Positions 5,448 through 54,866 are shown, numbered from the stretch's first letter. The stretch is DNA of 64,000 nucleotides from Bacillota bacterium (GCA_050259635.1 JBLNBA010000001.1:7329-71328); one strand, 5' to 3'. Notes: generated by a model not told the origin, from the sequence alone. Translations and numbers: made by a program.

Positions 5448-8400
5448 ATGAAACAAAAAAAGTTTTTACAACTTGTATCGAAAGCCAGCCTCTTTGCACT
5501 TATGGGGGCGACAATACTAAGTTTCAACGCCGCATTGCCAGCCCAAGCCGCTGGGCCTAATTTAATAACCAACCCTTCCCTCGAGACTGCCGACGGAGCA
5601 AACCCCCAAGGCTGGCTCAATGGTTTTTTCCCGGCCGGCCTGCAAGCAAATTTCACCTACCCGGTTGAAGGTTCCACCGGTACAAGCAGCAAGGCGGCTA
5701 AAGTAGAGATTACCAGTTATCCGGGCGAAGGCGATGCAAAATGGTACTTCCAAGACGTAACGGTCCAACCCGAAACCTACTACGTGATTTCCGATAAATA
5801 TAAGTCCACGATTCCGAATAAAGTAATCGTGCGCTATAACCTTGGCAATAGCGTATATAACAACGTCACCTTAGAACAGCTCCCGGCAGCAGCAGACTGG
5901 ACAAACATGAGCCACGAGTTTTTGACACCGGCCGGAGTAATATCACTCACTATCTTCCATGTGATAGAAGGAGTGGGGACATTGACGGTAGACGACTATA
6001 ATCTAGCCACGAAAGATTCCCCCAATGTCTTCGACAATGGCATGTTTACTTTTACCTTCGATGATGGTTGGCAATCCGTCTATGACAATGCCCTTCCTAT
6101 CCTCGATGCTAAAGGATACAAGAGCACTCAATATATTATTACTGATGTCGTCCAAGATGAAAGGGTGGGTTCCTATATGACTTCGGCTGAAGTACTCGCC
6201 ATGATTAATTCCGGCCATGATATAGCCGACCATACCCGCACCCATACCAGCTTAGCCCTACCCCCCTTAAGCCCGGCAGAACTTGCTAAAGAAGTATCCG
6301 GTTCCCGCCTTGATCTTCTCACCCGCTTGAACGCGAAACCGGTGGACAGTTTAGCTTATACCTATGGGGATTATGATGAGGCCGCCAAAGCCGCCGTTCG
6401 GGATGCCGGTTTCATCGGAGCGCGCACGATCGACGAAGGATATAACGATAAAGCCTCAGACCGCTATGCCTTGAAGGCCATGTCTATCCTCAGGGGCGGA
6501 ATAGACGCGGATAATGGAAACGAAATCGCCACCACCACGATCGAAGAAGTGAGGGCTGCCATAGATAACGCCATTACCAACAAGGCTTGGCTCATATTCA
6601 CCCTTCACCAAATAGACAATATCGATAGCAACGTCTATGGCGCCACCCCCGAATTCCTCCAACAGATGGTGGACTACATCCAGCAAAAGCAAGGCTCCGT
6701 GAAGACCATGTCCGAAGCGCTGCATTTAATGCCTGGAACCCCGGTTAAAGATACTGTTCCGCCTATCCTAGCAACCACTACGGATATTAGCGTCCCAGCC
6801 ACTAGCGGATCGGGTGCAATCGTCTCTTTTTCTTCACCGGCTGTGACCGATAATATTGATACCAATCTTAAATCTTTCTGCTATACGGCTTCCGGCTTGG
6901 CTTCAAGCTCCACTTTCCCTATTGGTAATACAGAAATATCTTGCCGAGCGATGGATTCGAGCGGCAACCTCTCCAGCTTAGGAACTTTTAATGTCATCGT
7001 TATTGATCCGGCTGCGCCTGTCGTCACTTTAAACTCACCGGTAAGCCCCACTAAGCTGAGAGACTTTACCTATAATTTCTCCAGTAGCGACCCCTTAGCA
7101 GTGCTGACTTATAGCCTTGATGGCGCCGCTTACCAAACAGCAACCTCGACAGCCACATCAACGGCAACCTCAACCGTTACTGTCACCGGCCTACTGGAGG
7201 GAAATCATACCTTTAGCGTCCAGGCAACGGACTCCCAGAACCGAGTTGGTATGGCCACCAGCCGTTTCATCGTCGATCTCACGAAACCGGTAATCACCCT
7301 TAATGGCTCCGCCTCATCTACCTTAGCGGTCGGGGCCGGCTTTACCGATCCGGGAGCAAGCGTCTTAGATAACGTCGATGGCGTAATGACCGCCATCGTA
7401 AGCGGTGACACTGTAACCACCAGCACCCCGGCTGGGACGTATAAGATTTACTATGATGCGACCGACAGGGCTGGAAATGCAGCAGATCGCCTGACTCGCA
7501 CAGTTATAGTCGGCGATGGCGGCAGCGGAAATAATAATAACGGCCCCTCAGCCACGGATATCAGCGCCACCGCGATTACCATCCGCTGGAATTCGGCCGC
7601 CTCGTCCACCGGCGCAATTGTTTGGGATAAAGCCTCCCATACAACGGCCTCCAGCACAGCGGCAGGACCGGAAAAATACGGCTATCCCAACCTTACCAGC
7701 GGAGGCAGCAATCCCAGCATTGAACATTCGATAAAGATAGAGAATCTCGACCCTGACACCACTTATTATTTCCGTACGGTTACGATAGCGGGCACCTCTA
7801 CCCCCCTGCTTGGAAACGAGATCAGCGCCAAGACTTTACGCCGGCCTTCAGGCGGCGGCGGTTATATCCCCTCGACTCCGCCAACATATTATGGACAGGC
7901 CAACGGCTACATCGCCTGGAACGGAAATGTCGGGGGCAATGGCAATGGCCAGACGGATTATCTCGCAGAAGCCAGGATCATTTCCTTATATAATGGCGAC
8001 ATTACCCTGACGCCCGCCAACCAAGCTCTATATAACAGCCTGGTCGGTAATAGGGTGGTAACGGAAGGACAGCGTAAAGCTATATCTTATTTCATCCAAA
8101 ACGGCACCGACAGCAGCCGCAAACTCGGCTCCGGTGAGCGAGCCGGAGTGCTCGGTTCCTTCCTGAAAGCATTCGAACGACTCCCGCTCGATGAGCAAGA
8201 TTGGGAAGATGTCTTAAAGGTAGCTTCCGGACGCTGGACTAAAAAGATCAACCAGAAGGCAGAGCAAAACGCCCTTACGATCTTTTCCGTCATCTATAAG
8301 CGTAAGGCGAACCTGAGCGAAGTCCACGACCAGACGGCGGTCAAGCTCATTGCGTATGGCTTACGCCCGGGTAATCGCAATCTTAAAAGTGAGAAAGCTT

Positions 8401-8498
8401 CACTCAAGAGCTTCTTCTCCATCTTTAACCGCCTGCCGAGGCTGGCTGGCGATTGGGACATCGTCCGGGCAATTGCCTATAGCGGCGCGAAGCGCTAA
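5448..8498 (+). CDS. large secreted multidomain polysaccharide deacetylase (CBM4/9-like + CE4 NodB + HYR + Ig-like/DUF5011-like + FN3-like + repeated C-terminal domain)
   Basis: Signal peptide ...LPAQAAGP. CE4 motifs FTFDDGW and DHTRTH. HYR-like DTVPPIL...SCRAMDSSGN. PVITLNG...GTYKIYYDATDRAGN is Ig-like. 1016 aa. Confidence 0.8.
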   Translation: MKQKKFLQLVSKASLFALMGATILSFNAALPAQAAGPNLITNPSLETADGANPQGWLNGFFPAGLQANFTYPVEGSTGTSSKAAKVEITSYPGEGDAKWYFQDVTVQPETYYVISDKYKSTIPNKVIVRYNLGNSVYNNVTLEQLPAAADWTNMSHEFLTPAGVISLTIFHVIEGVGTLTVDDYNLATKDSPNVFDNGMFTFTFDDGWQSVYDNALPILDAKGYKSTQYIITDVVQDERVGSYMTSAEVLAMINSGHDIADHTRTHTSLALPPLSPAELAKEVSGSRLDLLTRLNAKPVDSLAYTYGDYDEAAKAAVRDAGFIGARTIDEGYNDKASDRYALKAMSILRGGIDADNGNEIATTTIEEVRAAIDNAITNKAWLIFTLHQIDNIDSNVYGATPEFLQQMVDYIQQKQGSVKTMSEALHLMPGTPVKDTVPPILATTTDISVPATSGSGAIVSFSSPAVTDNIDTNLKSFCYTASGLASSSTFPIGNTEISCRAMDSSGNLSSLGTFNVIVIDPAAPVVTLNSPVSPTKLRDFTYNFSSSDPLAVLTYSLDGAAYQTATSTATSTATSTVTVTGLLEGNHTFSVQATDSQNRVGMATSRFIVDLTKPVITLNGSASSTLAVGAGFTDPGASVLDNVDGVMTAIVSGDTVTTSTPAGTYKIYYDATDRAGNAADRLTRTVIVGDGGSGNNNNGPSATDISATAITIRWNSAASSTGAIVWDKASHTTASSTAAGPEKYGYPNLTSGGSNPSIEHSIKIENLDPDTTYYFRTVTIAGTSTPLLGNEISAKTLRRPSGGGGYIPSTPPTYYGQANGYIAWNGNVGGNGNGQTDYLAEARIISLYNGDITLTPANQALYNSLVGNRVVTEGQRKAISYFIQNGTDSSRKLGSGERAGVLGSFLKAFERLPLDEQDWEDVLKVASGRWTKKINQKAEQNALTIFSVIYKRKANLSEVHDQTAVKLIAYGLRPGNRNLKSEKASLKSFFSIFNRLPRLAGDWDIVRAIAYSGAKR

Positions 8499-18866: not shown

Positions 18867-18875
18867 TGTTATAAT
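18867..18875 (+). promoter_or_regulatory. extended -10 promoter TGTTATAAT
   Basis: TGnTATAAT. The following GACAGTAAT is identical to the region after the promoter at 10569. Confidence 0.45.
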
Positions 18876-18924
18876 GACAGTAATCGCCTCGAAAATAGGC
18901 GCCCTTATCTTAGCTAATTATCTT

Positions 18925-20292
18925 ATGAAAAAACGGATATTCCTCCTCCTGCTCTTGGGGGCATTCATGCTAAGCGCCGGTTTCGGCTGTAAAACAGTAG
19001 ACAAGGAAACCAAAGCCGCGATGGAGCCCGTAACGCTCACTTATTGGCGTGTCATTGATGACACAGACACCTTCCAACCGATCATCGACGCGTATCGAGT
19101 CCTGCATCCCAACGTCACCGTTAAATATCGGAAGCTTAGGTTGGAAGAATATGAAACCGAACTTCTTAATGCCTTAGCGGAAGATAGAGGTCCGGATATC
19201 CTTTCTATCCATAATACCTGGATTCGCAAATACCAAAGCAAGCTCGCTCCGATGCCTGCCACCATCACCATGGCCTATCCAGTGGAGAAGGGCTCGATAA
19301 AAAAAGAAATCGTCACGGAGCTTAGAAGTATCAAGTCCCCGACTCCAAAAGAAATACGCGAAACCTTCGTAGACGCTGTCCCTAACGATGTCGTCATTGA
19401 TAACCAGATATACGGCCTGCCCCTCTCAGTCGACACTCTCGCTCTCTTCTATAATCGCGATCTTTTAAATAATGCCGGCATCGTCCAACCTCCGGCTTTC
19501 TGGAATAAAGAGTTCCAACAGAATGTAAAGAAGCTCACCAAACAAGATGCTAGCGTGGGGATAGTGCAGTCGGGTATCGCCCTTGGAGGCAGCAAAAATA
19601 TCGAGCGTTTCAGCGATATCCTTTCAGTATTGATGATGCAAAATGGTGCAACCATGATGGATGGCGGCCGCGTTCTCTTTAACACCATACCGGCAAAAAA
19701 CAGCGGCAATAATTATAACCCGGGACTGGAAGCTCTCAGATTCTACATCGACTTCGCCAACCCGGGGAAAGAAGTATATTCCTGGAATGAATCCTTGGCC
19801 AATTCCCTGGAACTATTCGCGAGCGGCAAGCTTGCTATGATGTTTGGCTATTCATATCATTTACCGGCCATAAAAGCTCTCTCCCCTAAATTGAACTTCT
19901 CCGTTGCCAAACTTCCCCAAATAGAAGGCAGTATGGTCGAGACTAATTTCGCCAATTATTGGATCGAGTCAGTATCGAAGAAAAGCCAAAATCCGGAGGC
20001 TGCTTGGGATTTCATCATTTTCGCCACCAAAGAAGCGCAGGCGAAGCAATACCTAGAAAAAACCAAGAAACCGACCGCCCTGCGTTCGCTCGTCACCGCT
20101 CAGCTTGAAGATGATGAAATCGGTGTCTTTGCCTCTCAGGTTCTCACAGCAAAGAGCTGGTACCAAGGGAAAGATGCGAAATCGGCTGAGGCGGCGCTTG
20201 CCGAAATGATCGACACTGCCAGTCTTAATCTCGATAAGATCCTAGAAGCGATTAATGCCGGTGCCTCCAAGGTACAACAAACACTAGAATAA
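18925..20292 (+). CDS. ABC-transporter-type extracellular solute-binding lipoprotein (family 1, sugar-type)
   Basis: Start moved to MKKRIFLLLLLGAFMLSAGFGC (lipobox LSAGFGC). Body resembles sugar-binding SBPs (YGLPLSVDTLALFYNRDLL). No permease or ATPase gene is adjacent. Confidence 0.7.
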   Translation: MKKRIFLLLLLGAFMLSAGFGCKTVDKETKAAMEPVTLTYWRVIDDTDTFQPIIDAYRVLHPNVTVKYRKLRLEEYETELLNALAEDRGPDILSIHNTWIRKYQSKLAPMPATITMAYPVEKGSIKKEIVTELRSIKSPTPKEIRETFVDAVPNDVVIDNQIYGLPLSVDTLALFYNRDLLNNAGIVQPPAFWNKEFQQNVKKLTKQDASVGIVQSGIALGGSKNIERFSDILSVLMMQNGATMMDGGRVLFNTIPAKNSGNNYNPGLEALRFYIDFANPGKEVYSWNESLANSLELFASGKLAMMFGYSYHLPAIKALSPKLNFSVAKLPQIEGSMVETNFANYWIESVSKKSQNPEAAWDFIIFATKEAQAKQYLEKTKKPTALRSLVTAQLEDDEIGVFASQVLTAKSWYQGKDAKSAEAALAEMIDTASLNLDKILEAINAGASKVQQTLE

Positions 20293-20293
20293 T

Positions 20294-20695
20294 ATGAAGA
20301 ATAAAGTCACAAAGTTCGCAATCACGGCCCTTGTCCTTGTATTCTCTTTTGCCCTTATTCAATCCGCTCTAGCCACCTCTACCCCCCAATCCATCGTAGA
20401 CAACACCACGAATGATTATAAATATGGAACTTATGACGTCAATGATGCGGTAATCTTTGTGATCCGCGCCTCACGTTGGGTTCTTGGACTCGTCGGTTCC
20501 CTCGCACTCCTGATGTTTGTCTACGGCGGCTTACTCTTCCTGATATCAGGCGGAAGCAGCGACCAAGTAGGTAAAGCCAAGAAAGTAATCATAGCGGCTG
20601 TCATCGGGCTGGCGATCGTTTTTGCAAGCTATCTGATAATCCAATACGTCCTGTCGATTTTAGGAATAAGCTGGGACGGAAAAATCCCCGCATGA
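20294..20695 (+). CDS. TrbC/VirB2-like pilin-family small membrane protein (paralog 0)
   Basis: Signal-like N-terminus, then LLMFVYGGLLFLISGGSSDQVGKAKKVIIAAVIGLAIVFASYLI. This is the same two-helix module as the 25303-27811 array. Confidence 0.65.
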   Translation: MKNKVTKFAITALVLVFSFALIQSALATSTPQSIVDNTTNDYKYGTYDVNDAVIFVIRASRWVLGLVGSLALLMFVYGGLLFLISGGSSDQVGKAKKVIIAAVIGLAIVFASYLIIQYVLSILGISWDGKIPA

Positions 20696-21351
20696 ATAGT
20701 TTTACCTTCAAAAAGCTCATAACACCCGATCACGCCGGCGAGAAGCTCCGCCATGCAAGAGAGGCCAAGAAAGCAACTTTAGAGGATGCCGCCGCCGTTC
20801 TCCATATCCGGGCGGATTATCTCGAAGCCCTTGAGAATGAAGAATACGACCGCTTACCCTCAGGATTATATGGACGCCAATTTTTTAAAGAATATTGTCA
20901 ACTGCTTAAACTAGACTATCGCAAACTTGTCCGACTCACTCCCTATTCCAAAGAAAAAGAAGGCGCTGACCCCTTTTCCCAAAAAGTATTGCGTCGGCAT
21001 AAATTCCTGGTATTCCCGAAACTGTTCCGAAATGCGCTCTTCATCGGCTTATTTTGTATCTGTCTGCTTTATCTGCTGATATATTTCCGCCGTTTGGCAT
21101 CCGCTCCCGAACTTATCGTAGACTATCCGCCAAGCAACATGGTAACGCACGAACTTTCAATTGAGATCCGCGGGCAAAGCGACCCGGAAACAGAAGTGAA
21201 GATCAATAACACCAGTATCATGAGCACGCAGGACGGTTCTTTCAGCCATGAGGTCCGCCTAAAACGCGGTTTAAACGACATTACGATCAGCGCGCAAAAG
21301 AAATACGGCCGGGAAAGCGTCATTGAACGCCAGATCCTAGTCGAGGAATAA
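20692..21351 (+). CDS. helix-turn-helix membrane protein, RodZ-like
   Basis: N-terminal HTH (LRHAREAKKATLEDAAAVLHIRADYLEALENEEYDRLP), one TM segment, and a C-terminal beta-rich domain. Confidence 0.55.
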   Translation: MNSFTFKKLITPDHAGEKLRHAREAKKATLEDAAAVLHIRADYLEALENEEYDRLPSGLYGRQFFKEYCQLLKLDYRKLVRLTPYSKEKEGADPFSQKVLRRHKFLVFPKLFRNALFIGLFCICLLYLLIYFRRLASAPELIVDYPPSNMVTHELSIEIRGQSDPETEVKINNTSIMSTQDGSFSHEVRLKRGLNDITISAQKKYGRESVIERQILVEE

Positions 21352-21352
21352 T

Positions 21353-21901
21353 ATGGTAAATCCTAAGACCATCCTATTTGACATCCCTGGGATTTTGAAT
21401 AAAATAGCAATTGAAGAAGGCCAAACAGTCGGAGAACTCGGTTGCGGCAATTTCGGCTACTTCGTCTTCCCGGTTGCCAGGCTAGTGGGAGCCAGAGGAA
21501 AGCTTTATGCCGTGGATATCCTCAAATCCACGCTTGAGGAGATTAAGAAGAAAGCTGTAACCGAAAACCTCAAGCAAATCGAGACTATCTGGACCAATTT
21601 AGAGGTATTTAAAGGAGCCAAAATAGAGAGCTCAAGCCTGGATCGCGCTCTTCTCATTAACACCCTCCATCAATCCCAGAAACGAGCGGAAATACTCAGA
21701 GAATCGGTACGCCTACTCAAATCGGGCGGGCGCCTCCTAGTGGTTGAATGGAAGAATGGCGAGAGTCCTCTGGGCCCTCCTACAGAGAAACGGGTCAGCC
21801 GAGATGCTTTAAAGCAAGCCGGACCGCGATTGGGTCTCATCCTTAAAGATGAGTTCGATGCCGGGCCATTTCATTACGGTTTAATATTCCATAAATCATA
21901 A
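21353..21901 (+). CDS. class I SAM-dependent methyltransferase
   Basis: VGELGCGNFG (motif I-like) and a RLLVVEW post-I region. Confidence 0.65.
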   Translation: MVNPKTILFDIPGILNKIAIEEGQTVGELGCGNFGYFVFPVARLVGARGKLYAVDILKSTLEEIKKKAVTENLKQIETIWTNLEVFKGAKIESSSLDRALLINTLHQSQKRAEILRESVRLLKSGGRLLVVEWKNGESPLGPPTEKRVSRDALKQAGPRLGLILKDEFDAGPFHYGLIFHKS

Positions 21902-21906
21902 ACACT

Positions 21907-22287
21907 ATGCAAAACCTGCTAACCTGGCGCTTCTGGTTCAACTTGCGCCCCGAGCCGCTACTCCCGTTATTCAACTATCTTTTCCTCGGCCTCATCGGAG
22001 CTCTAATAATCGCTACGATAGCTACAGGCTTCCTCCAGAGACGCAAAAGCCTCTACAAGGGCGTTTGGCGCCGTGCCTATGTCTTCAGTTTTAGTAATTC
22101 AGTCGTGGGCGTAGCCTTATTTTTCTTCAATTATGAACGAGCAGCATTTCTCTCTGGTCGTTTCTGGATCCTTTTCTGGGGAATAACCATGATTGCCTGG
22201 CTGGCATATATCCTGAAAGGCATAAAAAGGCCAGCTAACAAAGAACAACTGGAAAAAGAGAGAGAATTCAAGAAATACCTTCCCTAA
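21907..22287 (+). CDS. hypothetical membrane protein (126 aa)
   Basis: Three hydrophobic segments; no family recognised. Confidence 0.45.
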   Translation: MQNLLTWRFWFNLRPEPLLPLFNYLFLGLIGALIIATIATGFLQRRKSLYKGVWRRAYVFSFSNSVVGVALFFFNYERAAFLSGRFWILFWGITMIAWLAYILKGIKRPANKEQLEKEREFKKYLP

Positions 22288-22295
22288 AACACAAA

Positions 22296-22321
22296 AGACC
22301 TCCTAACGGAGGTCTTTTTTA
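22296..22321. terminator. bidirectional intrinsic terminator
   Basis: agacctcc-taac-ggaggtct hairpin flanked by an A-run and a T-run, between convergent genes. Confidence 0.65.
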
Positions 22322-23647
22322 TTCCTTCATCTTCCAAACGCTAACCCAGGCATCCTCGAATACAGGTTCATATTTATCATCGATAAGCCGCTCTACCGGA
22401 TTATCCGAGTTATATCGGAAACGATGCAGCGAAGAAGAAAAAGAACGGACAACACATATGGGCATTTTCTCCGCGATCGCCGCCGCCGCGTCTGCGAACT
22501 GAGCCCGAGTCTGGTGTCCAGTTATGAGGATATCGAAGGAAGAAGCGCTTAGTTTTTGAGTTTCATAATAAGCATTAGGAAAAAATGGACCGGCATGCAA
22601 ATATGCCCCCGGACAATTATGCTTTACGTACTCAATGAAACCGGGTTCCATCCCTGGTTCGAGGGCAGCTGAGGCATATCGGCTCACCGGATACAAGAAT
22701 AAGCAGGCAAAAATGGCAAGATATATCCAGGTCCACATAGTCTTTCGATCCGTCATGCCGATTACGACCATCGGCAATACAGGTAAAAGCGCAATTGTAA
22801 GGTGATATGAATCAGGAAGAGGCAGGCAAGACAAGAGGAGAAGCGCAGCGATATAATATAATAGCCATTCTTCTTTACTAGAGCGTCGGCGGTCCCATAC
22901 CAAACAAGCCAAACCGGCTACCGCCCACCAAAATAATGCCAAAGAAAAGCGATTTGCTTCAATATAATTGAATATGGGAAAAATGATTAACTGATCAAAA
23001 ACTAGTTTTGCCGGAAAAATCAAGAATAGAAGTGCTAGCGGAATAAGAGCGATAGATAAGAAGACTATTACCTGACTAAACTTCCTTTTCCAACCATTCT
23101 CTACCCATAATAACCATACCGCTTCTGCCCCCAGGAAGGCCAAGCCTTTCTGTTGCAATAATATGATTGAAAGCCCGGTTACGAAGGCGGCTACTATAAA
23201 TGAGGACATCTTTCTTCTCTCCCGATATGATAGTAAAAAATTTACTGCCCAGAGAATGACAACGAGATTAAAGAAATTATGATTAATAATCCAGTGCCAA
23301 GAGGTCAAAATCAAGAAAAGGATGGGGGAAAAATATGAAGCCTGCCGGGCTCCAAACCTTTTAGTTAACCGGAATACGGCCACCGCCCCCATGATTACAA
23401 ATATAATCGCTAAAGCCTTGGCTGACCAAAAAGCCGCTCCAGTAAGGCTGAAAGCGGCTGCAACTAAATACGACGATAGCGGCGGAATAAAGGTAAAATA
23501 ATCCGTAAACGGTTCTCGTCCGTTAAAGATATTCCAAGCACCATTAAGAATCACGCCTTCATCGGCATTAATCAAATGGTCGCAGTGAATTAACACCGCC
23601 AAAGCACTAATAAACAGCCAATACGCTAATTTACTCAGTCTTTTCAT
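22319..23647 (-). CDS. polytopic membrane glycosyltransferase, GT-C fold (GT39/PMT_2/ArnT-like)
   Basis: First-loop motif ADEGVILNGAWNIFNGREPFTDYFTFIPPL resembles PMT_2/GT39-like enzymes. More than 10 TM segments. Start moved to MKRLSK (ATG 23645-23647). Confidence 0.55.
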   Translation of the reverse strand: MKRLSKLAYWLFISALAVLIHCDHLINADEGVILNGAWNIFNGREPFTDYFTFIPPLSSYLVAAAFSLTGAAFWSAKALAIIFVIMGAVAVFRLTKRFGARQASYFSPILFLILTSWHWIINHNFFNLVVILWAVNFLLSYRERRKMSSFIVAAFVTGLSIILLQQKGLAFLGAEAVWLLWVENGWKRKFSQVIVFLSIALIPLALLFLIFPAKLVFDQLIIFPIFNYIEANRFSLALFWWAVAGLACLVWDRRRSSKEEWLLYYIAALLLLSCLPLPDSYHLTIALLPVLPMVVIGMTDRKTMWTWIYLAIFACLFLYPVSRYASAALEPGMEPGFIEYVKHNCPGAYLHAGPFFPNAYYETQKLSASSFDILITGHQTRAQFADAAAAIAEKMPICVVRSFSSSLHRFRYNSDNPVERLIDDKYEPVFEDAWVSVWKMKE

Positions 23648-25199
23648 AAATAGATGCCAGGCCGTCAAAATAGACCCGGGACCAAAGAGGAGAGCCGTCA
23701 AAATATTCCCTTAAATTATCAGTAGGTGATGGTTTGCTATCTTTAATATTGAAAAAAATTCTTTCCCATTTCTTATACTGATAAGTCCGATCACTTGAAT
23801 ATATGATAGCCGTATCGATGCCATGCTTTTCTATGGCCGCCCCTATATCTTCAAAGCCATATCTCAAAGCTCGATATTCTTCTAAAATCGTTCGGTTCCC
23901 ATATCGCTCCTGAGGCATCCGTCCATCAATGAAATAGTCAAGCTCGGGCGCTGAATAAAGGAGAAACCCTCCCCAATTGAACTCGTTGAATATCCGTCTC
24001 GATTTTACCTGGCTTAAAGATTCCAAATACTCCACAGCTGCGCAAGGGTATTTTTGTCCACAATAGGCCAGAATCGGATGCAGACCGTAAGGTATCTTCA
24101 CGAGAAGGATAATAGACAGGCCCGCTAAGGATATTGCCGCCAATACTCGCAGCCTGGTAACCATCTGGCCACCTAATTTCGGTAAATCGCTGAAGATATC
24201 TTCCAAAAATAACGTACAGAGGGGTAAGGTAATCAAGGCGAACAAAGGGAAATGTCGACGAGAGCGCCAGGCAAGGATATAAAAAATGATGAATACTCCA
24301 TATTCCCAAAGAGTCCCCCTTTTTACTTCCCGCCAGCGATAAATATGCCAAGTTGCCAGGGCTGAAACCAAAGCTAAATAGGCTAATTGAGGATAATATA
24401 AAGGAAGTGAATATTGGCCAAGCCACTCCTGGATATACCCCATATAGGACGTATTGGTATAACCGGCCAATAAGCCATACAACCTGAATCCATACGGGTT
24501 TATTAACGTCGCCGCCAAAGACATGACCCAGGAAGCAGTAATAAACCAGCGATCACGGTTGGTAAATGATATTATCGGAAGTCCAACAGCTTGGCTAATC
24601 CGCCGCACTAAAGGCACAAGCCAAAGATAGACAGTGTATGCCCCTAGTAAGGCTAGCCCCAAAAGGAAGCTACCATGGAAATTAGACCAGAGAAGAAAAA
24701 GGGTGGGCATTATATAAAGGAAGTGCTTGGGTCTGACCCAAGTGATGACATACATAATGACTACCGAAAAAAGCAAGCCAAATTCCTGGACCCTTAAACC
24801 CAGATGTGGCCGACTCGCCCAAACAGCCAAAACCCCAAGAAGGAAGGCGTATCCCAAGCTATTTTTTTTAGCCCCATGCCATACAGCTAAAGCTACGGCC
24901 GTGAGGGCCACTAGAGCAAAGAGCAGATGCAGGACGCCAAACCCGGCTAATTTAGTCACCCCAGCCATACCTGCATTTAGAAGCCACTCATGATCGATCC
25001 AATCTCTTTGGAGCGTAAAATTGTAGAAGTTTTCCCGAGGAGCCTGCCCGCTGTCCAAGATATCGTTACCAACACGAAGATGCCATCCTAGGTCAGAATC
25101 AGAATATGAATAAGAATTAAATATAAGAATAGATAAGAAAAAAATAAGGCCGCTGCCGATCAATATTCCTCTTGACAAGTTCTTTTTTTTCTTATCCAT
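23631..25199 (-). CDS. large polytopic membrane protein, possible GT-C-type glycosyltransferase
   Basis: About 12 hydrophobic segments, an early loop SDSDLGWHLRVGN...DHEWL, and a soluble C-terminal domain. Family not firmly recognised. Confidence 0.45.
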   Translation of the reverse strand: MDKKKKNLSRGILIGSGLIFFLSILIFNSYSYSDSDLGWHLRVGNDILDSGQAPRENFYNFTLQRDWIDHEWLLNAGMAGVTKLAGFGVLHLLFALVALTAVALAVWHGAKKNSLGYAFLLGVLAVWASRPHLGLRVQEFGLLFSVVIMYVITWVRPKHFLYIMPTLFLLWSNFHGSFLLGLALLGAYTVYLWLVPLVRRISQAVGLPIISFTNRDRWFITASWVMSLAATLINPYGFRLYGLLAGYTNTSYMGYIQEWLGQYSLPLYYPQLAYLALVSALATWHIYRWREVKRGTLWEYGVFIIFYILAWRSRRHFPLFALITLPLCTLFLEDIFSDLPKLGGQMVTRLRVLAAISLAGLSIILLVKIPYGLHPILAYCGQKYPCAAVEYLESLSQVKSRRIFNEFNWGGFLLYSAPELDYFIDGRMPQERYGNRTILEEYRALRYGFEDIGAAIEKHGIDTAIIYSSDRTYQYKKWERIFFNIKDSKPSPTDNLREYFDGSPLWSRVYFDGLASIYEKTE

Positions 25200-25302
25200 A
25201 TAGACATTTTATCACACGCCCTCTTGTTTGTCTTTCATGGTTACTTATGATAAAATAAAAGTATTATTTGAAACTATCAACAACTAGAAAGGTGGTGAAT
25301 TT

Positions 25303-25692
25303 ATGAAAAAAAGAATCGCTAAACATCTACTGGCCTTCGCTCTTCTTACCTTATTCGCCCTCCCGATGGTGACTTTCGCCCAATCGGGAAACATCGACGT
25401 GGGTTTGAATGAAATCGAGCAGGGATTCGGAGATAACGGCTTAGGGAACGTTGATCCTCGCGTTACCGTCGCCAAGTTGATTAACACCGCCATGCTCTTC
25501 CTGGGCATCATTGCTGTCGTCATCATCTTGCTGGCTGGTTTCAAGTGGATGACTTCCGGAGGCAACGAGGACAAGGCAGCTGAAGCTCGCAAGCTTCTAG
25601 GCGCTGGCGTCATCGGTTTAGTTATCATTTTGTCCGCTTGGGGCATCGCCACCTTCGTTCTTGACAGACTTATCCAAGCGACCAACGAATAA
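25303..25692 (+). CDS. TrbC/VirB2-like pilin-family protein (paralog 1)
   Basis: SD-like aaaggtgg upstream. Signal segment ends ..VTFAQ. Core is LFLGIIAVVIILLAGFKWMTSGGNEDKAAEARKLLGAGVIGLVIILSAWGIATFV. Confidence 0.7.
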   Translation: MKKRIAKHLLAFALLTLFALPMVTFAQSGNIDVGLNEIEQGFGDNGLGNVDPRVTVAKLINTAMLFLGIIAVVIILLAGFKWMTSGGNEDKAAEARKLLGAGVIGLVIILSAWGIATFVLDRLIQATNE

Positions 25693-25782
25693 CCGTTTCT
25701 AAGATCGATTTTAGAAAAGGAGGCCCTTGCACGCAGGGGCCACCGCCCCGTAAATCAGCACTGCTGGTTTCCGGAGCGGTGA

Positions 25783-26190
25783 ATGAATAATATGAAAATA
25801 CATACACTTCGCCGCCTAGCGGCCTGCTTGATATTAACCAGCGCCTTGTTAGCCGGTTTTTTTATACCCACATCATCCTGGGCACAAACCGAGAACAATT
25901 ACGGCTTAGATGACAGCGCCGAAAAGGTAGGGGCCTACCAAGCGCAGATCAATAGCTCGGATAACTTCCTTACGACCAAGGTGGGAAGTATAATAGGGAT
26001 AGTCCTTTCCTTCGTCGGTGTTATTTTCCTTGTACTTATTATTTATGCCGGACTTAATTGGATGACCGCTTCCGGTAATGCAGATAAGGTTGGCAAGTCT
26101 AAGGATATGATGATTAACGCCGTTATCGGCCTTATCATCGTCCTGGCCGCCTACGCCATAACCGCCTTCGTCGGGGATCGCTTGCTCTAG
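25783..26190 (+). CDS. TrbC/VirB2-like pilin-family protein (paralog 2)
   Basis: Signal segment ends ..SSWAQ. Core is FVGVIFLVLIIYAGLNWMTASGNADKVGKSKDMMINAVIGLIIVLAAYAITAFV. Confidence 0.7.
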   Translation: MNNMKIHTLRRLAACLILTSALLAGFFIPTSSWAQTENNYGLDDSAEKVGAYQAQINSSDNFLTTKVGSIIGIVLSFVGVIFLVLIIYAGLNWMTASGNADKVGKSKDMMINAVIGLIIVLAAYAITAFVGDRLL

Positions 26191-26192
26191 AT

Positions 26193-26594
26193 ATGAAATT
26201 GACTATCAAAAAAGCTATTGCCTCATTATATCTGGTGCTTGCCAGCGGATTTATTATGGCACCAGCCCTTGCCCAGACTTATGATTTCTCTAGCCAAAGC
26301 GGTCTAAATGAAACTGGAGTAGCCGCTGGCTATGACACCGGCAACGAGGCACCGACTGTCGAAGGATATGTAAGCCGTATTATTACAATTGTCCTGTCTT
26401 TGCTGGGAGTTATATTCCTGGGTTTGACCATATATGCCGGGCTTATCTGGATGATGGCTCAAGGCAATGAGGCGAGGGTGAGTAAAGCTAAAGAACTGCT
26501 GACAGAAGCGGTAATTGGCGTACTCGTAGTTTTGGCCGCCTATGCAATAAGCATTTTCGTTCTCAAAGCCACAACAGGCACTTTGCTTAAATGA
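26193..26594 (+). CDS. TrbC/VirB2-like pilin-family protein (paralog 3)
   Basis: Signal segment ends ..PALAQ. Core is LLGVIFLGLTIYAGLIWMMAQGNEARVSKAKELLTEAVIGVLVVLAAYAISIFV. Confidence 0.7.
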   Translation: MKLTIKKAIASLYLVLASGFIMAPALAQTYDFSSQSGLNETGVAAGYDTGNEAPTVEGYVSRIITIVLSLLGVIFLGLTIYAGLIWMMAQGNEARVSKAKELLTEAVIGVLVVLAAYAISIFVLKATTGTLLK

Positions 26595-26595
26595 C

Positions 26596-26940
26596 ATGTT
26601 TTTTAAACTTATACAATCCGTCTCAGCCGCTAATCTAAAAGATGCTTTCGACACTAGCGCCAATAAGCCCTTGTCTACCGTTGCGGAAAAAGGCGCCGGA
26701 TTCTTGCCGGGAATATCACTTGAAACCCAAGCGGGAAATATAATTACCGCCATCTTATCGCTCCTGGGCATCTTGTTTGTTGTCTATGGCGTATATGGGG
26801 GTTTTGTCTTTATGATGGCCAGTGGCAACCCGGAAAAAACAAAGCACGGAGTTGCAATCATCACCCAAGCCTTGACCGGCATGATCATTATCCTGGCCGC
26901 CTATGCGATCTCATATTTTATCATCAAAATCATCACCTAA
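26596..26940 (+). CDS. TrbC/VirB2-like pilin-family protein (paralog 4, shortest, atypical N-terminus)
   Basis: Core is LLGILFVVYGVYGGFVFMMASGNPEKTKHGVAIITQALTGMIIILAAYAISYFI. The N-terminus MFFKLIQSVSAANL is a weak signal. Confidence 0.65.
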   Translation: MFFKLIQSVSAANLKDAFDTSANKPLSTVAEKGAGFLPGISLETQAGNIITAILSLLGILFVVYGVYGGFVFMMASGNPEKTKHGVAIITQALTGMIIILAAYAISYFIIKIIT

Positions 26941-26943
26941 CCT

Positions 26944-27378
26944 ATGAAAACTAGAGCTATCAAGCCAATATTTACCTTCCTCCTACTGACCGCCGTTATG
27001 ATCCTGCCCTATTTCGTCTTTGCCCAGACAACGACGGGTGGGACGATTAATACCGGGTCTCAAGCAAACCCCATCCAGATGCTGGAAAATGTAGCTACCG
27101 GCCAATCCGGACAGGGCGGGCCCTATCAGGCCGCTGATGAAAGTACTCTTCCCCAAATTGTGGGCCTAATCGTTAACGCCGCCCTCGGCTTGCTTGGCAT
27201 CATCTTTATCATCCTCATCATCTATGCGGGCTATCTCTGGATGGCCGCATCCGGGAACCAAGCAGCTGTCGATAAGGCAAAAAAAATCATCACCAGTTCA
27301 ATCATCGGGCTAGTCATCGTTCTAAGCTCCTGGTCCATCTGGGTATTCGTGCTGCAGAATTTGATTTCTAAGTTCTAA
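26944..27378 (+). CDS. TrbC/VirB2-like pilin-family protein (paralog 5)
   Basis: Signal segment ends ..FVFAQ. Core is LLGIIFIILIIYAGYLWMAASGNQAAVDKAKKIITSSIIGLVIVLSSWSIWVFV. Confidence 0.7.
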   Translation: MKTRAIKPIFTFLLLTAVMILPYFVFAQTTTGGTINTGSQANPIQMLENVATGQSGQGGPYQAADESTLPQIVGLIVNAALGLLGIIFIILIIYAGYLWMAASGNQAAVDKAKKIITSSIIGLVIVLSSWSIWVFVLQNLISKF

Positions 27379-27382
27379 CTTT

Positions 27383-27811
27383 ATGAAGAAAATATTTGTG
27401 CCGATCTTCCTCGCCCTCTTTCTTTTTCTGGCCGGCACCAACGTCCAAGCCCAAACAAGCACCGATTTGATAGACACGATAGCCGGACCGGCGGATGCAA
27501 TGCGCTCCACAACCGGTCTAGCCGAATTTACTATTGGTAGCCTGATCGCCTTGATAATCAAGGTCGCGCTTGGCCTACTGGGCGTGATCTTCATCATCTT
27601 GATCATTTTCTCCGGCTACCGCTGGATGACCGCCTCCGGCAATGAAGAAGCAGTTAATAAGTCGAAGAAGACCATCCAAATGGCAATCATTGGTCTGGTT
27701 ATCGTCTTGGCTGCTTATTCCATAACCTACTTCGTGTTTGAAAGACTGCCCTTCGGAGGAATTGGGGCATCTCCTTCGTCCGGCAACCTGCAAGGAAGCG
27801 GTACGGATTAA
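27383..27811 (+). CDS. TrbC/VirB2-like pilin-family protein (paralog 6)
   Basis: Signal segment ends ..NVQAQ. Core is LLGVIFIILIIFSGYRWMTASGNEEAVNKSKKTIQMAIIGLVIVLAAYSITYFV, with a G/S-rich C-terminal tail. Confidence 0.7.
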   Translation: MKKIFVPIFLALFLFLAGTNVQAQTSTDLIDTIAGPADAMRSTTGLAEFTIGSLIALIIKVALGLLGVIFIILIIFSGYRWMTASGNEEAVNKSKKTIQMAIIGLVIVLAAYSITYFVFERLPFGGIGASPSSGNLQGSGTD

Positions 27812-27837: not shown

Positions 27838-27870
27838 AAAGGCCGCCTATAAGGTGGCCTTTATCTTTTC
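27838..27870. terminator. bidirectional terminator between the pilin array and a convergent gene
   Basis: aaaggccgcc-tataa-ggtggccttt hairpin (one G-U pair) flanked by an A-run and T-rich sequence. Confidence 0.6.
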
Positions 27871-28747
27871 AGTTCGCCCACACAATCGTGGATTTTACAT
27901 TTCTCGTTGGGTAGACATACCAATGCAGAATCTCCGCATTAAAGCCTAATTTTGTCTTGTTTGATACGGTGAATACATATTCCTTTTCGATTTGCTGTCC
28001 ATACGCGTAGGAAACCGCGGTATATTTTCCTGGAAGTAAATAGGCCTCGACCGTCTGTCCCGGCTGAAGGATGGCGTCAAATGAATCGACACTTTCCTTT
28101 TCATTTCTGATTCTTATTTGATATAGAGTATTAGTCGGATTATATACCTTTCCCTTATACCCCATTATCGAATCAACCACGACCGGCGACTCTCGCATTT
28201 TAGTAACAGCCATGCTGAAAATTTTCGCTTGAGCCTCCGTTTTGGCGTCATCAAGGACTACCTCGTTACTACTTAACCGGCGTTTTTTATTACAATTTGA
28301 AATTGCGACCGGTACCTTGTCATCCATTGCTTCACTGATGCTTTTTTTCTGGAACATATTAAGCATCCCGTTCATATCCCGGATAGTGTCAAGTAAGAAT
28401 TTCTCTTTAAGGAGTAAGCTTTTGTATGCCCAGGGGTTATCATTAAAGTGATAATTTTTTATCTGGGCATCCAGGATCTTTATGCGCTTCAGAAATGCGT
28501 CTTTCATCTCAAGCGTTAAGCCCGAACCGTCATCCGCCCTCCTCTGAAGACTATCTCTGGTAGCTATTAGTTCAGCCTTGCTTATCGGCCTATTACTGAT
28601 TTCACCCCGGACCTTATTAAGCTCGGCGTTGAAACGGGCAATACTAGCCCGCAGTTGTTGTTCTTCCTTAGTCTGCTGCTTTGTCTGACTTACCGCAGAG
28701 ATGCTCATCAGAACGAAAAGAAGGATGAAAAAATTTAGCTTTTTCAT
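27869..28747 (-). CDS. secreted hypothetical protein (292 aa)
   Basis: Signal peptide MKKLNFFILLFVLMSISAVSQ, an N-terminal coiled-coil-like region and a beta-rich C-terminus. No family recognised. Confidence 0.5.
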   Translation of the reverse strand: MKKLNFFILLFVLMSISAVSQTKQQTKEEQQLRASIARFNAELNKVRGEISNRPISKAELIATRDSLQRRADDGSGLTLEMKDAFLKRIKILDAQIKNYHFNDNPWAYKSLLLKEKFLLDTIRDMNGMLNMFQKKSISEAMDDKVPVAISNCNKKRRLSSNEVVLDDAKTEAQAKIFSMAVTKMRESPVVVDSIMGYKGKVYNPTNTLYQIRIRNEKESVDSFDAILQPGQTVEAYLLPGKYTAVSYAYGQQIEKEYVFTVSNKTKLGFNAEILHWYVYPTRNVKSTIVWAN

Positions 28748-28985: not shown

Positions 28986-29594
28986 ATGAAGATTTTCAAG
29001 ATCAGCGAGGAAATCGTGCCCCTCAGTAGACGCCAACAGGCTGTCCTCGCTTTAATAATTACCCTTGTCTTCCAGTTTCTCCTGTTTTTCGCTCCGGTTC
29101 TGGCCGCAGAAGCCGTCGAACAAGATAGGATACAGACTGTTAAGGTAGAGGCAACTAAAGGCGAAGCCGACCCCGTCGTGGCCGCTTTAATAAGCGAAGT
29201 CCAGGCCTCACCTTTACCAGTCGAGGAAATTGCATCCACACCAGAACCGACGGTGCAGCCAGAGGCTGAAACGGTGAAGGTTATCCGCACCAGCACCCAT
29301 GTCATGACTGCCTATAATTCAGAGGCCGCCCAAACGGATGGTTCCCCTTGTATCACCGCCAATGGTTTCAATGTTTGCGAACATGGGACAGAGGATACGA
29401 TAGCGGCAAACTTCCTTAAATTCGGCACCAAGGTTCGCATTCCTGATTTATATGGCGATAGGATATTCGTCGTTCGCGATCGAATGAATAAAAGATATTC
29501 GGATCGCGTCGATATCTGGATGGTCCACAAAGCAGACGCTCTGAAGTTCGGTGTCCGAACTGCCAAGATTGAAGTTGTCGAAGTAATTGAATAA
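28986..29594 (+). CDS. 3D-domain (MltA/YabE-like double-psi beta-barrel) cell-wall-associated protein
   Basis: N-terminal TM/signal segment. C-terminus TAYNSEAAQTDGSPCITANG...TIAANFLKFGTKVRIPDLYGDRIFVVRDRMNKRYSDRVDIWM is typical of 3D domains. Confidence 0.7.
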   Translation: MKIFKISEEIVPLSRRQQAVLALIITLVFQFLLFFAPVLAAEAVEQDRIQTVKVEATKGEADPVVAALISEVQASPLPVEEIASTPEPTVQPEAETVKVIRTSTHVMTAYNSEAAQTDGSPCITANGFNVCEHGTEDTIAANFLKFGTKVRIPDLYGDRIFVVRDRMNKRYSDRVDIWMVHKADALKFGVRTAKIEVVEVIE

Positions 29595-40649: not shown

Positions 40650-41051
40650 ATGTTCAGTAAAGACAACAAAATCGAAAAATTAAAAGATGCGGAGACCATA
40701 ATCGGCGCCTCAATCCGCGTAAAAGGGAACTTTAATGGTAAGGGCGACATTGTTATCGAAGGATTCTTAGAGGGATCCTTAAAGACTGAGGCGAATGTTT
40801 ACATTGGAGAAAAAGCTCGCGTCAATGCCAATGTGGAAGCAACCGAGGCCTTAATCAGTGGAGAAATTAGCGGCAACATCAAGGCCCGTAAATATTTAGC
40901 AATCGGTAAGACCGCTAAAATTGCCGGCGATGTTCATTGTGGTGAAATTTCAATCGAGCGGGGCGCTTCCATCACCGGTCAAATTATTGTTTCCAGTGCC
41001 GACACCAGAAAAACCGAGGCTCGAAAAGCCAGCGACGAAGTCGAGGAGTAA
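40650..41051 (+). CDS. bactofilin-family polymer-forming cytoskeletal protein
   Basis: IIGASIRVKGNFNGKGDIVIEGFLEGSLKTEANVYIGEKARVNANVEA...ISGEISGNIKA is the bactofilin (DUF583) beta-helix repeat pattern. Confidence 0.8.
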   Translation: MFSKDNKIEKLKDAETIIGASIRVKGNFNGKGDIVIEGFLEGSLKTEANVYIGEKARVNANVEATEALISGEISGNIKARKYLAIGKTAKIAGDVHCGEISIERGASITGQIIVSSADTRKTEARKASDEVEE

Positions 41052-43512: not shown

Positions 43513-44916
43513 GTGCTTATGAACAACGACCAAATCTGGCAAGCGGCCCTTGGAGAATTAGAAATAAATCTCTCAAGGGTTAATTTCGTTACCTGGTTCA
43601 AGGACACTTATCTGTCCTCTTTTGAAAATGGCCGAGCGATTATTTGCGTACCCAATGCTTTTGTTAAGAAGTGGCTTGAAGAAAAATACCATAAGAACAT
43701 TGTTTCTTCGCTTGAAAATATTTCGAAGCAAAAACTACAGGAAATAATTTACAAAATTGAACTTCGCCACGCCGGCCCGCATGAACTCGCTCCTTCGGTC
43801 ATGAGCATTAAACAGCCAGAAACAGTAATTACAGACGCTAGACAAGAAGCCTCCCGTTCATCTTCGTCCGGACAGCCGGCTAATCGCTTTGGTCTTAATC
43901 CGAAATATGTTTTCGAAAATTTCATAGTAGGCCGAGGCAACGAACTTGCTCACGCTGCTTGCCGTGCGGTTGTAAATAATCTTGGGAAAGCCTATAATCC
44001 TCTTTTCATCTATGGCGGCGTTGGTTTAGGAAAAACGCATTTACTTCAAGCTATCGGTAATGAAGTCGCGAAACACACTGATAAAATTCTTTATGTTACC
44101 AGTGAAAAATTTACCAATAACTACATCCAGGCCGTACAAACAGGAAAGGCTAAAGACTTTAAAAATATCTATCGCAACGTCGACCTCTTATTAGTAGACG
44201 ATGTCCAGTTTATGGGCGGGAAAGACGGGACTCAAGAAGAATTCTTCCACACTTTCAACGAACTACAGCAGGGCGATAAGCAAATCGTAATGACCTCCGA
44301 TCGTCCGCCGAAGTCTATCCCTGCCATAGAAAAACGTCTTATCTCCCGCTTCGAATCAGGCATGGTGGCCGATGTGGGTAAGCCCGATATGGAAACTAAG
44401 ATCGCGATTCTCGAGAAGAAGTCCTTAGAGAAAGGCTTTCCTTTAGATAAGGATGTTCTAATATACATCGCAAATAATGTACAGAATAACATCAGAGAAC
44501 TTGAAGGGGCTCTTAATAAGGTAATCGTAATCCACCAGCTAAACAACTCCGTCCCGACATTAAAAAGTGTTAGGAACGCCTTAAGCGACTATGTTTCAAG
44601 CCTCCAGGCTAAGTCGCTTACTGCCAAAGAAATCATCGAGGCTGTCTCTCGATTTTACGAAATCAGCCACAAAGATATAGTCGGTACCAGCCGACGGAAA
44701 GAGCTTGTGGGTCCAAGACAGATTGCCATTTATCTTATTAGGGAAGAATTAAATTCATCTTATCCTAGCATCGGCCAGGAAATTGGAGGGCGCGATCACA
44801 CGACTGCTATGCATGCTTATAATAAGATCTTGGGTGAATTGAAAGAAAATGATAATGAACGTTTAAAGCAAGAGATAGAATCAATCAAACAGTTATACGC
44901 CAACCCACTCTATTGA
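43513..44916 (+). CDS. dnaA: chromosomal replication initiator protein DnaA
   Basis: WQAALGELE..., Walker A GGVGLGKTHLLQAIGN, LLVDDVQF, sensor regions, and C-terminal DNA-binding SYPSIGQEIGGRDHTTAMHAYNKI. Start is GTG 43513 or ATG 43519. Confidence 0.92.
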   Translation: MLMNNDQIWQAALGELEINLSRVNFVTWFKDTYLSSFENGRAIICVPNAFVKKWLEEKYHKNIVSSLENISKQKLQEIIYKIELRHAGPHELAPSVMSIKQPETVITDARQEASRSSSSGQPANRFGLNPKYVFENFIVGRGNELAHAACRAVVNNLGKAYNPLFIYGGVGLGKTHLLQAIGNEVAKHTDKILYVTSEKFTNNYIQAVQTGKAKDFKNIYRNVDLLLVDDVQFMGGKDGTQEEFFHTFNELQQGDKQIVMTSDRPPKSIPAIEKRLISRFESGMVADVGKPDMETKIAILEKKSLEKGFPLDKDVLIYIANNVQNNIRELEGALNKVIVIHQLNNSVPTLKSVRNALSDYVSSLQAKSLTAKEIIEAVSRFYEISHKDIVGTSRRKELVGPRQIAIYLIREELNSSYPSIGQEIGGRDHTTAMHAYNKILGELKENDNERLKQEIESIKQLYANPLY

Positions 44917-54811: not shown

Positions 54812-54866
54812 AATAAAAAAATTACAAATATTTGCTATAATTATAAGGCTATTATAACCCATTAAG

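Follow-up and report, generated by a model that had tools for sequence, protein, structure and literature searches.

What does a bacterium build with seven different pilin-like proteins when none of the machinery that would assemble them is encoded nearby? The question is raised by a 64,000-nucleotide (nt) stretch of DNA (GCA_050259635.1, JBLNBA010000001.1:7329-71328; hereafter the window), in which six VirB2-like pilin genes, p1-p6, follow one another at positions 25303-27811 and a seventh, p7, stands about 5 kb upstream. The metagenome-assembled genome (MAG) it comes from (locus tags ACM3PZ_*) is labelled 'Bacillota bacterium', which, judging from gene content, is wrong: the lineage is Patescibacteria of the ABY1/Falkowbacteria type. 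Members of the Patescibacteria, which live attached to host cells, account for a large part of bacterial diversity. We propose, with moderate confidence, that the seven proteins are VirB2-like subunits of a Patescibacteria-type type IV secretion system (T4SS), in which a VirB4 machine encoded elsewhere would build a heteromeric filament or a wall-spanning conduit.

The six array genes all lie on the plus strand, at 25303..25692 (p1, 129 amino acids (aa)), 25783..26190 (p2, 135 aa), 26193..26594 (p3, 133 aa), 26596..26940 (p4, 114 aa), 26944..27378 (p5, 144 aa) and 27383..27811 (p6, 142 aa, with a G/S-rich C-terminal tail), separated by gaps of 90, 2, 1, 3 and 4 nt; the solitary p7 (133 aa) occupies 20294..20695 on the same strand. 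Coordinates, lengths and gaps are as a preliminary description of the locus had given them, and so is the conserved two-helix hairpin common to all seven (...LLGvIF...AG..WMtAsGN...KAk..I..AiIGLvIvL.AY.I..F), although overall pairwise identity among the paralogs is 22-44%. A hidden Markov model (HMM) built from the seven recovered every one of them from the 701 six-frame open reading frames (ORFs) of the window, with E-values of 1e-36 to 1e-49. As the next-best ORF reached only E 2.5, there is no eighth copy among these ORFs and the window holds exactly seven.

All seven carry precomputed Pfam marks for PF18895, the T4SS_pilin family, in the sequence collection. Six score above its gathering score of 26.6 bits (29.4-40.9 bits: p1 39.3, E 7e-10; p2 29.4; p4 36.2; p5 40.9; p6 37.9; p7 34.0), as the preliminary description had led us to expect. 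The remaining one, p3, falls just below at 24.7 bits and is nonetheless an unambiguous paralog, because the HMM of the seven assigns it an E-value of 3e-46. The proteins also have the architecture of PF18895, a signal and two transmembrane (TM) helices in about 100-150 aa, with p4 lacking the first segment. By hydropathy, six of the seven have three hydrophobic stretches, one at the N-terminus and two helices after it. The signal-like N-termini end in FAQ (p1, where the site reads TFA/QS), WAQ (p2), LAQ (p3), FAQ (p5) and QAQ (p6), and in ALA/TS in p7; from these AXA-like motifs the signals are predicted to be cleaved. The processing site of VirB2 is Ala-Gln, which the predicted A/Q cleavage of the array pilins resembles. 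The earlier statement that each protein has such a signal holds for p1, p2, p3, p5, p6 and p7 and fails for p4, which begins with MFFKLIQSVSAANLKDAF and allows no upstream extension. As a hydrophobic N-terminus is present in 48 of 51 orthologs at position 4 (the one in the related locus L002 begins with MNISIKTVSHYIIGSFAFFTLFVNDVLAAPTLKDAF), p4 has lost most of its signal peptide in the source genome. It may be decaying, or may be inserted by another route.

An AlphaFold2 (AF2) model of p5, based on 68 homologs, comprises a signal helix, a low-confidence segment (residues 27-67) and a hairpin of two helices (68-101 and 106-141) with a predicted local distance difference test score (pLDDT) of ~95. 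A Foldseek search of the Protein Data Bank (PDB) with this model returned nothing at E<=0.001. In the ranking of its matches, ATP synthase subunit c came second and the conjugative pilin of Aeropyrum pernix (8dfu) 41st (TMt 0.65), among generic hairpins. Since the hairpin fold is indistinct in Foldseek, family membership rests on HMM scores and architecture and not on fold. A sequence-profile search of the PDB brought up only designed 'Pizza' repeat proteins, spurious matches through a chance motif of 20 residues whose i-Evalues exceeded 300 per stretch.

To what extent the array is a stable unit can be read from its relatives, which a p1 profile located in at least 488 species-representative genomes; the best 79 loci were analysed. 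The array is conserved in related genomes. Four genomes share a common layout of genes for SMC, a solute-binding protein (SBP), p7, a RodZ-like protein, a methyltransferase, a 126 aa protein, glycosyltransferases, p1-p6, proteins of ~280 and ~200 aa, phosphoenolpyruvate (PEP) synthase and Lgt, at a distance where p5 orthologs are only 47-64% identical. In an all-against-all BLASTP comparison, 81 of 84 cross-genome best matches fell at the same array position, and orthologs are 39-74% identical, as against 22-44% for the paralogs of the window. Orthologs of p1 are the most similar of the seven (65-74%); those of p2 and p3 are 56-65% and 44-59% identical, respectively. Among 67 fully covered arrays, 51 (76%) have six genes, 10 have seven, four have eight, and five genes and a single gene occur once each. 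The dominant order is p1-p2-p3-pX-p5-p6, position 4 being the least stable and fastest-evolving (it is classified as p4, p3, p6 or p2 in relatives). The median intergenic gap within arrays is 7 nt, and the solitary upstream pilin is found in 52 of the 55 relatives with enough upstream sequence. Across about 80 species the seven paralogs are each conserved, and their order is fixed. Even the exposed segment of p1 is kept between orthologs (GLNEIEQGFGDNGL..DPR). As most arrays have six genes and best matches respect position, this pattern fits seven ancient, non-redundant and distinct subunits in fixed order, which would be co-expressed, and excludes recent gene amplification. A fixed order of distinct subunits implies a heteromeric structure; this idea, already raised in the preliminary description, is strengthened by the strict positional orthology, and the accompanying notion of a variable surface gives way, since the paralogs are individually conserved and not rapidly varying.

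The one wide gap of the array holds a structured RNA element. In the 51 six-gene arrays the median gap after position 1 is 92 nt, compared with 2-9 nt after positions 2-5. In the window the p1-p2 spacer (25693..25782, plus strand) folds into three hairpins (H1 25693-25720, H2 25722-25741, H3 25742-25780) with a minimum free energy of -45.9 kcal/mol (z -5.2), which none of 200 shuffled sequences equalled, and the 3' arm of H3 contains the GGAG that precedes the p2 start. Such stability (z < -2) was seen in 36 of 38 spacers and in only 1 of 58 coding-segment controls. From a 27-sequence alignment RNAalifold predicted 23 base pairs, and compensatory double changes occur in 20. Pairing was kept in 91.9% of cells, against 72% after column shuffling and 36-47% with slid partners, and double changes occupied 147 cells against an expected 44 +/- 8; 0 of 500 shuffles reached either observed value. 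Searched against 85 sources (1.45 Mb), a covariance model (CM R1) built from this alignment matched the sense strand of 77, once per locus and nowhere but at the p1-p2 junction (25693-25797 in the window, and the same junction in L002-L087). None of the 4227 Rfam models matched the window at gathering threshold; between 25200 and 27900 the only match at E<=1 was Phe_leader (E 0.55), which lies near the terminator and is irrelevant to the p1-p2 element.

Overall, this suggests a role as major subunit for p1 and as minor subunits for p2-p6, because the RNA element divides p1 from p2-p6 and p1 is the best conserved of the set. The element would raise p1 output relative to p2-p6 through stabilisation of the 3' end, through processing, or through damped initiation at p2 that spreads through the coupled genes. 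The presumed transcription unit is framed by a promoter-like site upstream of p1 (25228..25256, plus strand; TTGTCT-17-TAAAAT with an extended -10 TG, a match to consensus only) in the 103-nt divergent intergenic region, and by a terminator-like hairpin closing p1-p6 (27838..27862, plus strand; an 11-bp stem with six GC pairs, then ATCTTTT).

Divergently from p1 runs a gene for a 522 aa membrane protein (23631..25199, minus strand), for which neither Pfam nor NCBIfam gave a match, even with the cut-off relaxed to E<=10. Its AF2 model is of high confidence (pLDDT 94, predicted template-modelling score 0.93) and matched, in Foldseek, STT3, AglB, PglB, the C-mannosyltransferase DPY19, ALG9 and ArnT (E 2e-7 to 1e-3, prob 1.00, TMq 0.46-0.63), and also the AglB C-terminal domain 3vu0. 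An acidic D-x-D follows directly after TM1, with D36 invariant and D34 near-invariant. The WWDYG motif is absent from the family, which instead has a near-invariant W409-G410-G411 and an invariant D425-G426-R427. Going by the model, the protein is a glycosyltransferase of the GT-C fold from the oligosaccharyltransferase (OST)-like branch; the fold match rules out that it is a cryptic VirB6-like channel. Of 65 loci, 51 have the GT-C gene next to p1 in divergent orientation, the two being a median of 118 nt apart. Downstream of it lies a gene for a second GT-C enzyme, of the PMT_2 family (22319..23701, minus strand; PF13231, E 4e-8), which is variable in relatives, where GT2 and/or MptA_B/GT87 genes stand instead.

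Could the pilins be its substrate? Across the clade, Ser and Thr make up a fraction of 0.08 of the exposed segment in p1 and of 0.17-0.19 in p2-p6, and N-X-S/T sequons are inconsistent, occurring in 33-61% of pilins per position. As the sequons are inconsistent and WWDYG is lacking, N-linked glycosylation by a PglB-type enzyme is unsupported and we do not file the protein as an N-oligosaccharyltransferase. O-linked modification of the minor subunits seems more plausible, since p2-p6 are S/T-rich compared with p1. The GT-C family is almost confined to this clade, apart from a tail of distant homologs. One of these, 27% identical and from an unrelated bacterium, is encoded in a Tad operon, flanked by the genes for the Flp pilin and the prepilin peptidase. 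In the 80 best metagenomic loci of the distant subfamily, specific Tad/Flp genes turned up in 27, and two or more of them in 19; where the flank reached 8 kb or more, 15 of 31 loci had such genes. These counts come from single-sequence BLAST, which is insensitive. Because distant homologs sit inside Tad/Flp pilus operons, the 522 aa enzyme is a candidate pilin glycosyltransferase. In all, at least 557 distant relatives occur in metagenomes; loci of the family include L089 (at 6001-7461) and L090-L169. In Pseudomonas aeruginosa, the GT-C enzyme TfpW is encoded beside the pilin it modifies (bioRxiv 10.1101/2020.04.19.049825); the solved Tad pilus of Caulobacter crescentus shows no glycan.

If the array encodes secretion pilins, where is the machine? 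Pfam scans of essentially all ORFs of at least 110 aa found no VirB4, VirB6, VirD4, VirB8, VirB3, PilB or Tad component in the 64 kb, and the ATPases present (SMC, DnaA and a RecQ-like protein) are non-secretion ones, so the earlier remark that no assembly machinery lies near the array stands. Large ORFs near the arrays of relatives were considered as VirB4 and rejected, being LeuRS (leucyl-tRNA synthetase), GyrA, RNase J, SBP_bac_5 or DUF2079 proteins; a recurrent ORF of ~500 aa with a Walker A motif is a Mg-chelatase/ComM-like gene. Published work on Patescibacteria helps here. Quinonero-Coronel et al. 2025 screened 3,035 genomes of this group using PF18895, PF04956 and CONJScan profiles and reported VirB4 of a Patescibacteria-specific clade in 2,407 assemblies (PMC12102498). 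VirB2-like pilins were present in 1,948 of the VirB4-positive assemblies and near virB4 in only 1,135; about 40% of assemblies have their pilin genes at a distance from virB4, and T4SS genes tended to sit near dnaA and, in ABY1, near comF, recG and radA (PMC12102498). Three of three array-bearing ABY1 relatives (L012, L042 and L054; ADurb.Bin115, whose p1 is 73% identical, Falkowbacteria CG1_02_41_21 and HGW-Falkowbacteria-1) are listed in Table S1 of that study under 'Presence of VirB4: Yes', and GCA_005795825 and GCA_016938835 were not found in its supplement. The machinery is thus probably encoded elsewhere in the genome, and an assembly system of a different kind, which the preliminary description had entertained, is unnecessary given that three relatives with the same array are listed as VirB4-positive.

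Together, these data suggest a model in which each pilin would be exported by the Sec pathway through a cleavable signal, usually cut between Ala and Gln, and left in the membrane as a two-helix hairpin with an exposed N-terminal segment of 30-60 aa. A VirB4-powered machine encoded elsewhere would then extract it into a filament, or a wall-spanning conduit, for contact with the host cell. In this scheme p1 would serve as major subunit, the translationally coupled p2-p6 as lower-abundance minor subunits, and p7 would be supplied by a separate operon of envelope genes; the divergent OST-like GT-C enzyme would probably glycosylate p2-p6 on their S/T-rich exposed segments. Family membership, paralogy, positional orthology, the RNA structure and the GT-C fold with its linkage are observed; filament formation, stoichiometry, glycosylation and dependence on VirB4 are inferred. 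Several observations weigh against the model or parts of it. No protein reaches the gathering score of the TrbC/VirB2 family PF04956 (27.9 bits), p1, p6 and p2 scoring 21.3, 19.9 and 17.2 bits and the other four giving no match. NF045849, the Mbov_0395 pilin-like conjugal transfer protein of a mycoplasma integrative and conjugative element, has a cut-off of 40 bits, and p1-p6 score 26.1-35.4 bits (E 1e-6 to 1e-9, a real similarity, though not at equivalog level) and p7 gives no match. Neither fold nor PDB sequence searches separate a pilin hairpin from other hairpins, and p4 has no signal peptide here. In none of ~85 related loci does a T4SS gene occur within 10 kb of the array, so that array and T4SS are not genomically linked in this clade; nor was VirB4, VirB6 or any other T4SS gene found in the 64 kb of the source genome. 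The three VirB4-positive relatives lend weak support, because the base rate is ~80% of assemblies. In 14 of 65 loci no GT-C gene stands beside the array, the sequons are irregular as described, and the RNA element has no U-tract after H3. Finally, we know of no pilus made of these proteins that has been seen in any Patescibacterium.

As an alternative, the PF18895 hairpin proteins of this clade could be envelope proteins independent of any T4SS, which form or organise a membrane or wall structure, or are small integral membrane subunits of another complex, with no part for VirB4. Besides the missing linkage and the generic hairpins, such as ATP synthase subunit c, in the fold search, this is favoured by the company the genes keep: conserved neighbours are the SBP, the RodZ-like protein, GT-C and GT2 glycosyltransferases and Lgt, and p7 lies inside the SBP/RodZ-like operon. 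Yet in Southlakia epibionticum ML1 (SEML1_0006-0019) a homologous array belongs to the T4SS cluster, and its pilin series is essential by transposon sequencing (Tn-seq; Wang et al. 2023, PMC10633639), while others lie near virB4 in the 1,135 assemblies mentioned above; array-bearing relatives have VirB4; and the sub-threshold TrbC/VirB2 similarity of p1, p2 and p6 spans the full length of the proteins. We therefore judge the envelope explanation unlikely.

The seven could also be alternative major pilins that serve antigenic or host-range variation, as proposed for the VirB2 paralogs of Bartonella and Anaplasma and as suggested for Patescibacteria themselves (PMC12102498). The divergent exposed segments are what such a function would produce, and both the fast-evolving position 4 and the occasional extra duplications, through which 14 of 67 loci have 7-8 genes, are in keeping with it. 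But each position forms an ortholog group across species- to family-level divergence (81/84), 76% of species have six genes, and exposed segments such as that of p1 (GLNEIEQGFGDNGL..DPR) are conserved between orthologs. Nor were repeats or recombination cassettes seen, and as the genes are translationally coupled, they would be co-expressed and not switched. Variation of this sort is accordingly very improbable in our view. A narrower doubt concerns only the p1-p2 spacer, which might be an operator or palindrome acting as DNA, or an ordinary terminator, in place of an RNA that sets stoichiometry. H1 is indeed a sequence-conserved near-palindrome (TTTCTAgAATCGATTTTaGAAA) that looks operator-like, and all other CM matches are minus-strand mirrors at the same sites. 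These mirrors are nonetheless weaker (32-40 bits, versus 46-104 bits on the sense strand), H2 and H3 vary in sequence while their pairing is kept, as the 147 double-change cells attest, and the frequent G.U pairs function on the sense strand only. The missing U-tract after H3 also speaks against an ordinary terminator. For the spacer, a DNA-level element or terminator is thus distinctly unlikely, and a heteromeric, VirB4-dependent structure remains our preferred reading of the array as a whole.

How much of this is new? Published reports already describe arrays of this kind: in 383 assemblies 441 of them were counted, each of 2-11 pilin genes, with a mean identity of 25% and a maximum of 54% (PMC12102498). 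The present array fits the definition used there, which takes pilin genes in tandem or with a single gene between them, as it has six tandem genes of 22-44% identity in a Patescibacteria genome. The novelty implied in the preliminary description does not survive this comparison, as tandem arrays of 2-11 genes and pilins away from virB4 have been described phylum-wide (PMC12102498), and its statement that the function had not been tested experimentally is outdated, the ML1 array, consisting of six divergent VirB2-like pilins (2025 review, PMC12857230), being essential in Tn-seq (PMC10633639, PMC12857230). The kind of array is therefore already published; new here are the fixed ancient set, the RNA element and the GT-C neighbour. 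Positional orthology, an intercistronic RNA and a GT-C neighbour go unmentioned in the searched passages of the three papers describing Patescibacteria arrays.

These three additions are incremental. In its most far-reaching form, the reading would be a VirB2-type filament or conduit of fixed composition, with p1 as major subunit, five glycosylated minors p2-p6 and a separate seventh, whose stoichiometry is set by an undescribed RNA element, and an OST-like GT-C family, not recognised before, that acts on the pilins of two unrelated systems, the VirB2-like one of Patescibacteria and the Flp/Tad one of other phyla. That all of it holds is doubtful, and we put it forward tentatively; if true, it would give the first evidence that a T4SS-type pilus can contain minor pilins and be glycosylated. 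Few functions have been shown to be essential to the host-attached lifestyle of Patescibacteria, and a T4SS-like system with its pilin array is one of them; the fixed set, the RNA element and the GT-C partner yield testable hypotheses on composition, stoichiometry and modification that replace the vague idea of variable pilins. Independently of these hypotheses, the recurrence of the GT-C family in Tad/Flp operons offers a starting point for work on pili beyond the candidate phyla radiation (CPR).

The wider window is ordinary origin-proximal chromosome, with YidC, DnaA (43513-44916) and DnaN at the sign change of the GC skew; the array lies ~16 kb from dnaA. Housekeeping genes include those for SMC, a class A penicillin-binding protein, PEP synthase, Lgt, serine hydroxymethyltransferase, FolD, GDH, a RecQ-like helicase, bactofilins, glycosyltransferases and eight tRNAs. 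The CPR origin that had been suspected is borne out by all homologs and syntenic loci, every one of which is from Patescibacteria, mostly Falkowbacteria-type MAGs, and the named relatives belong to GTDB class ABY1. Taxonomic labels are unreliable in this group: many syntenic relatives (L009-L087) are titled 'uncultured Gammaproteobacteria bacterium', though Patescibacteria by gene content. The p7 gene, translationally coupled to its neighbours, is 1 nt from the SBP gene and overlaps an HTH_25 gene by 4 nt. Its operon (18874-22318), kept in most relatives, comprises an orphan sugar-type SBP, p7, the RodZ-like HTH_25/Glucodextran_B protein, an S-adenosylmethionine-dependent methyltransferase and a 126 aa membrane protein, and closes with a bidirectional terminator-like hairpin (22293-22318). 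Downstream of the array are two conserved genes without family, for a 292 aa signal-anchored coiled-coil protein (27869-28747, minus strand) and a 202 aa secreted protein (28986-29594, plus strand) with a possible role in wall remodelling. That the latter is a VirB1-like hydrolase is not established: its C-terminus resembles the EntA/EntB (3D-type wall-binding) proteins only weakly (E 1e-3, far below cut-off), and it has no PDB relative. Two bactofilin-domain genes lie at 40650-41051 (133 aa, beside the origin region) and 53687-54943 (minus strand; 418 aa, with a long extension), and 5448-8498 encodes a 1016 aa surface protein with polysaccharide deacetylase, HYR, Ig-like and fibronectin-III-like domains that may be a host-surface or cell-wall-modifying factor. 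One relative (L078, 655-3816) encodes a leucyl-tRNA synthetase with an alpha/beta serine-hydrolase insert (~496-668) between its editing and anticodon-binding parts.

Set against known systems, the array resembles the Patescibacteria arrays of PMC12102498, ML1 and TM7x (the 'Sec-secreted array') in its PF18895 proteins, tandem genes, low identity, monoderm host and origin-proximal position, and resembles ML1 also in having six genes per array. It differs from them in being detached from all T4SS genes (within 64 kb in the window and 10 kb in ~85 loci) and in its ABY1/Falkowbacteria-type host, published arrays being most abundant in Microgenomatia and Saccharimonadia. With the VirB2/TrbC/TraA pilins (the T-pilin of Agrobacterium tumefaciens, TrbC of RP4 and TraA of F) it shares the long signal peptide and the two-helix hairpin with its short basic loop. 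In contrast to them, its proteins score below gathering for PF04956 (at most 21.3 against 27.9 bits) and have a much longer exposed N-terminal segment, there are seven paralogs in place of one and no outer membrane, and VirB5, cyclase, acetylase and adjacent machinery are lacking. The 522 aa neighbour is like STT3/AglB/PglB, DPY19 and ArnT in its predicted GT-C fold, its AglB-like C-terminal extracytoplasmic domain and the acidic D-x-D after TM1, and unlike them in being only 9-14% identical, in belonging to no Pfam or NCBIfam family and in having WGG and DGR where WWDYG is absent. Type IV pili are unrelated in fold and assembly machine, using prepilin peptidase and PilB, and the analogy is functional only. 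Nonetheless, the division we propose between one abundant subunit and a co-transcribed block of about five low-abundance ones would parallel their sets (pilA with fimU-pilVWXE), and a GT-C enzyme encoded beside the pilins it modifies would parallel TfpW of P. aeruginosa group IV strains.

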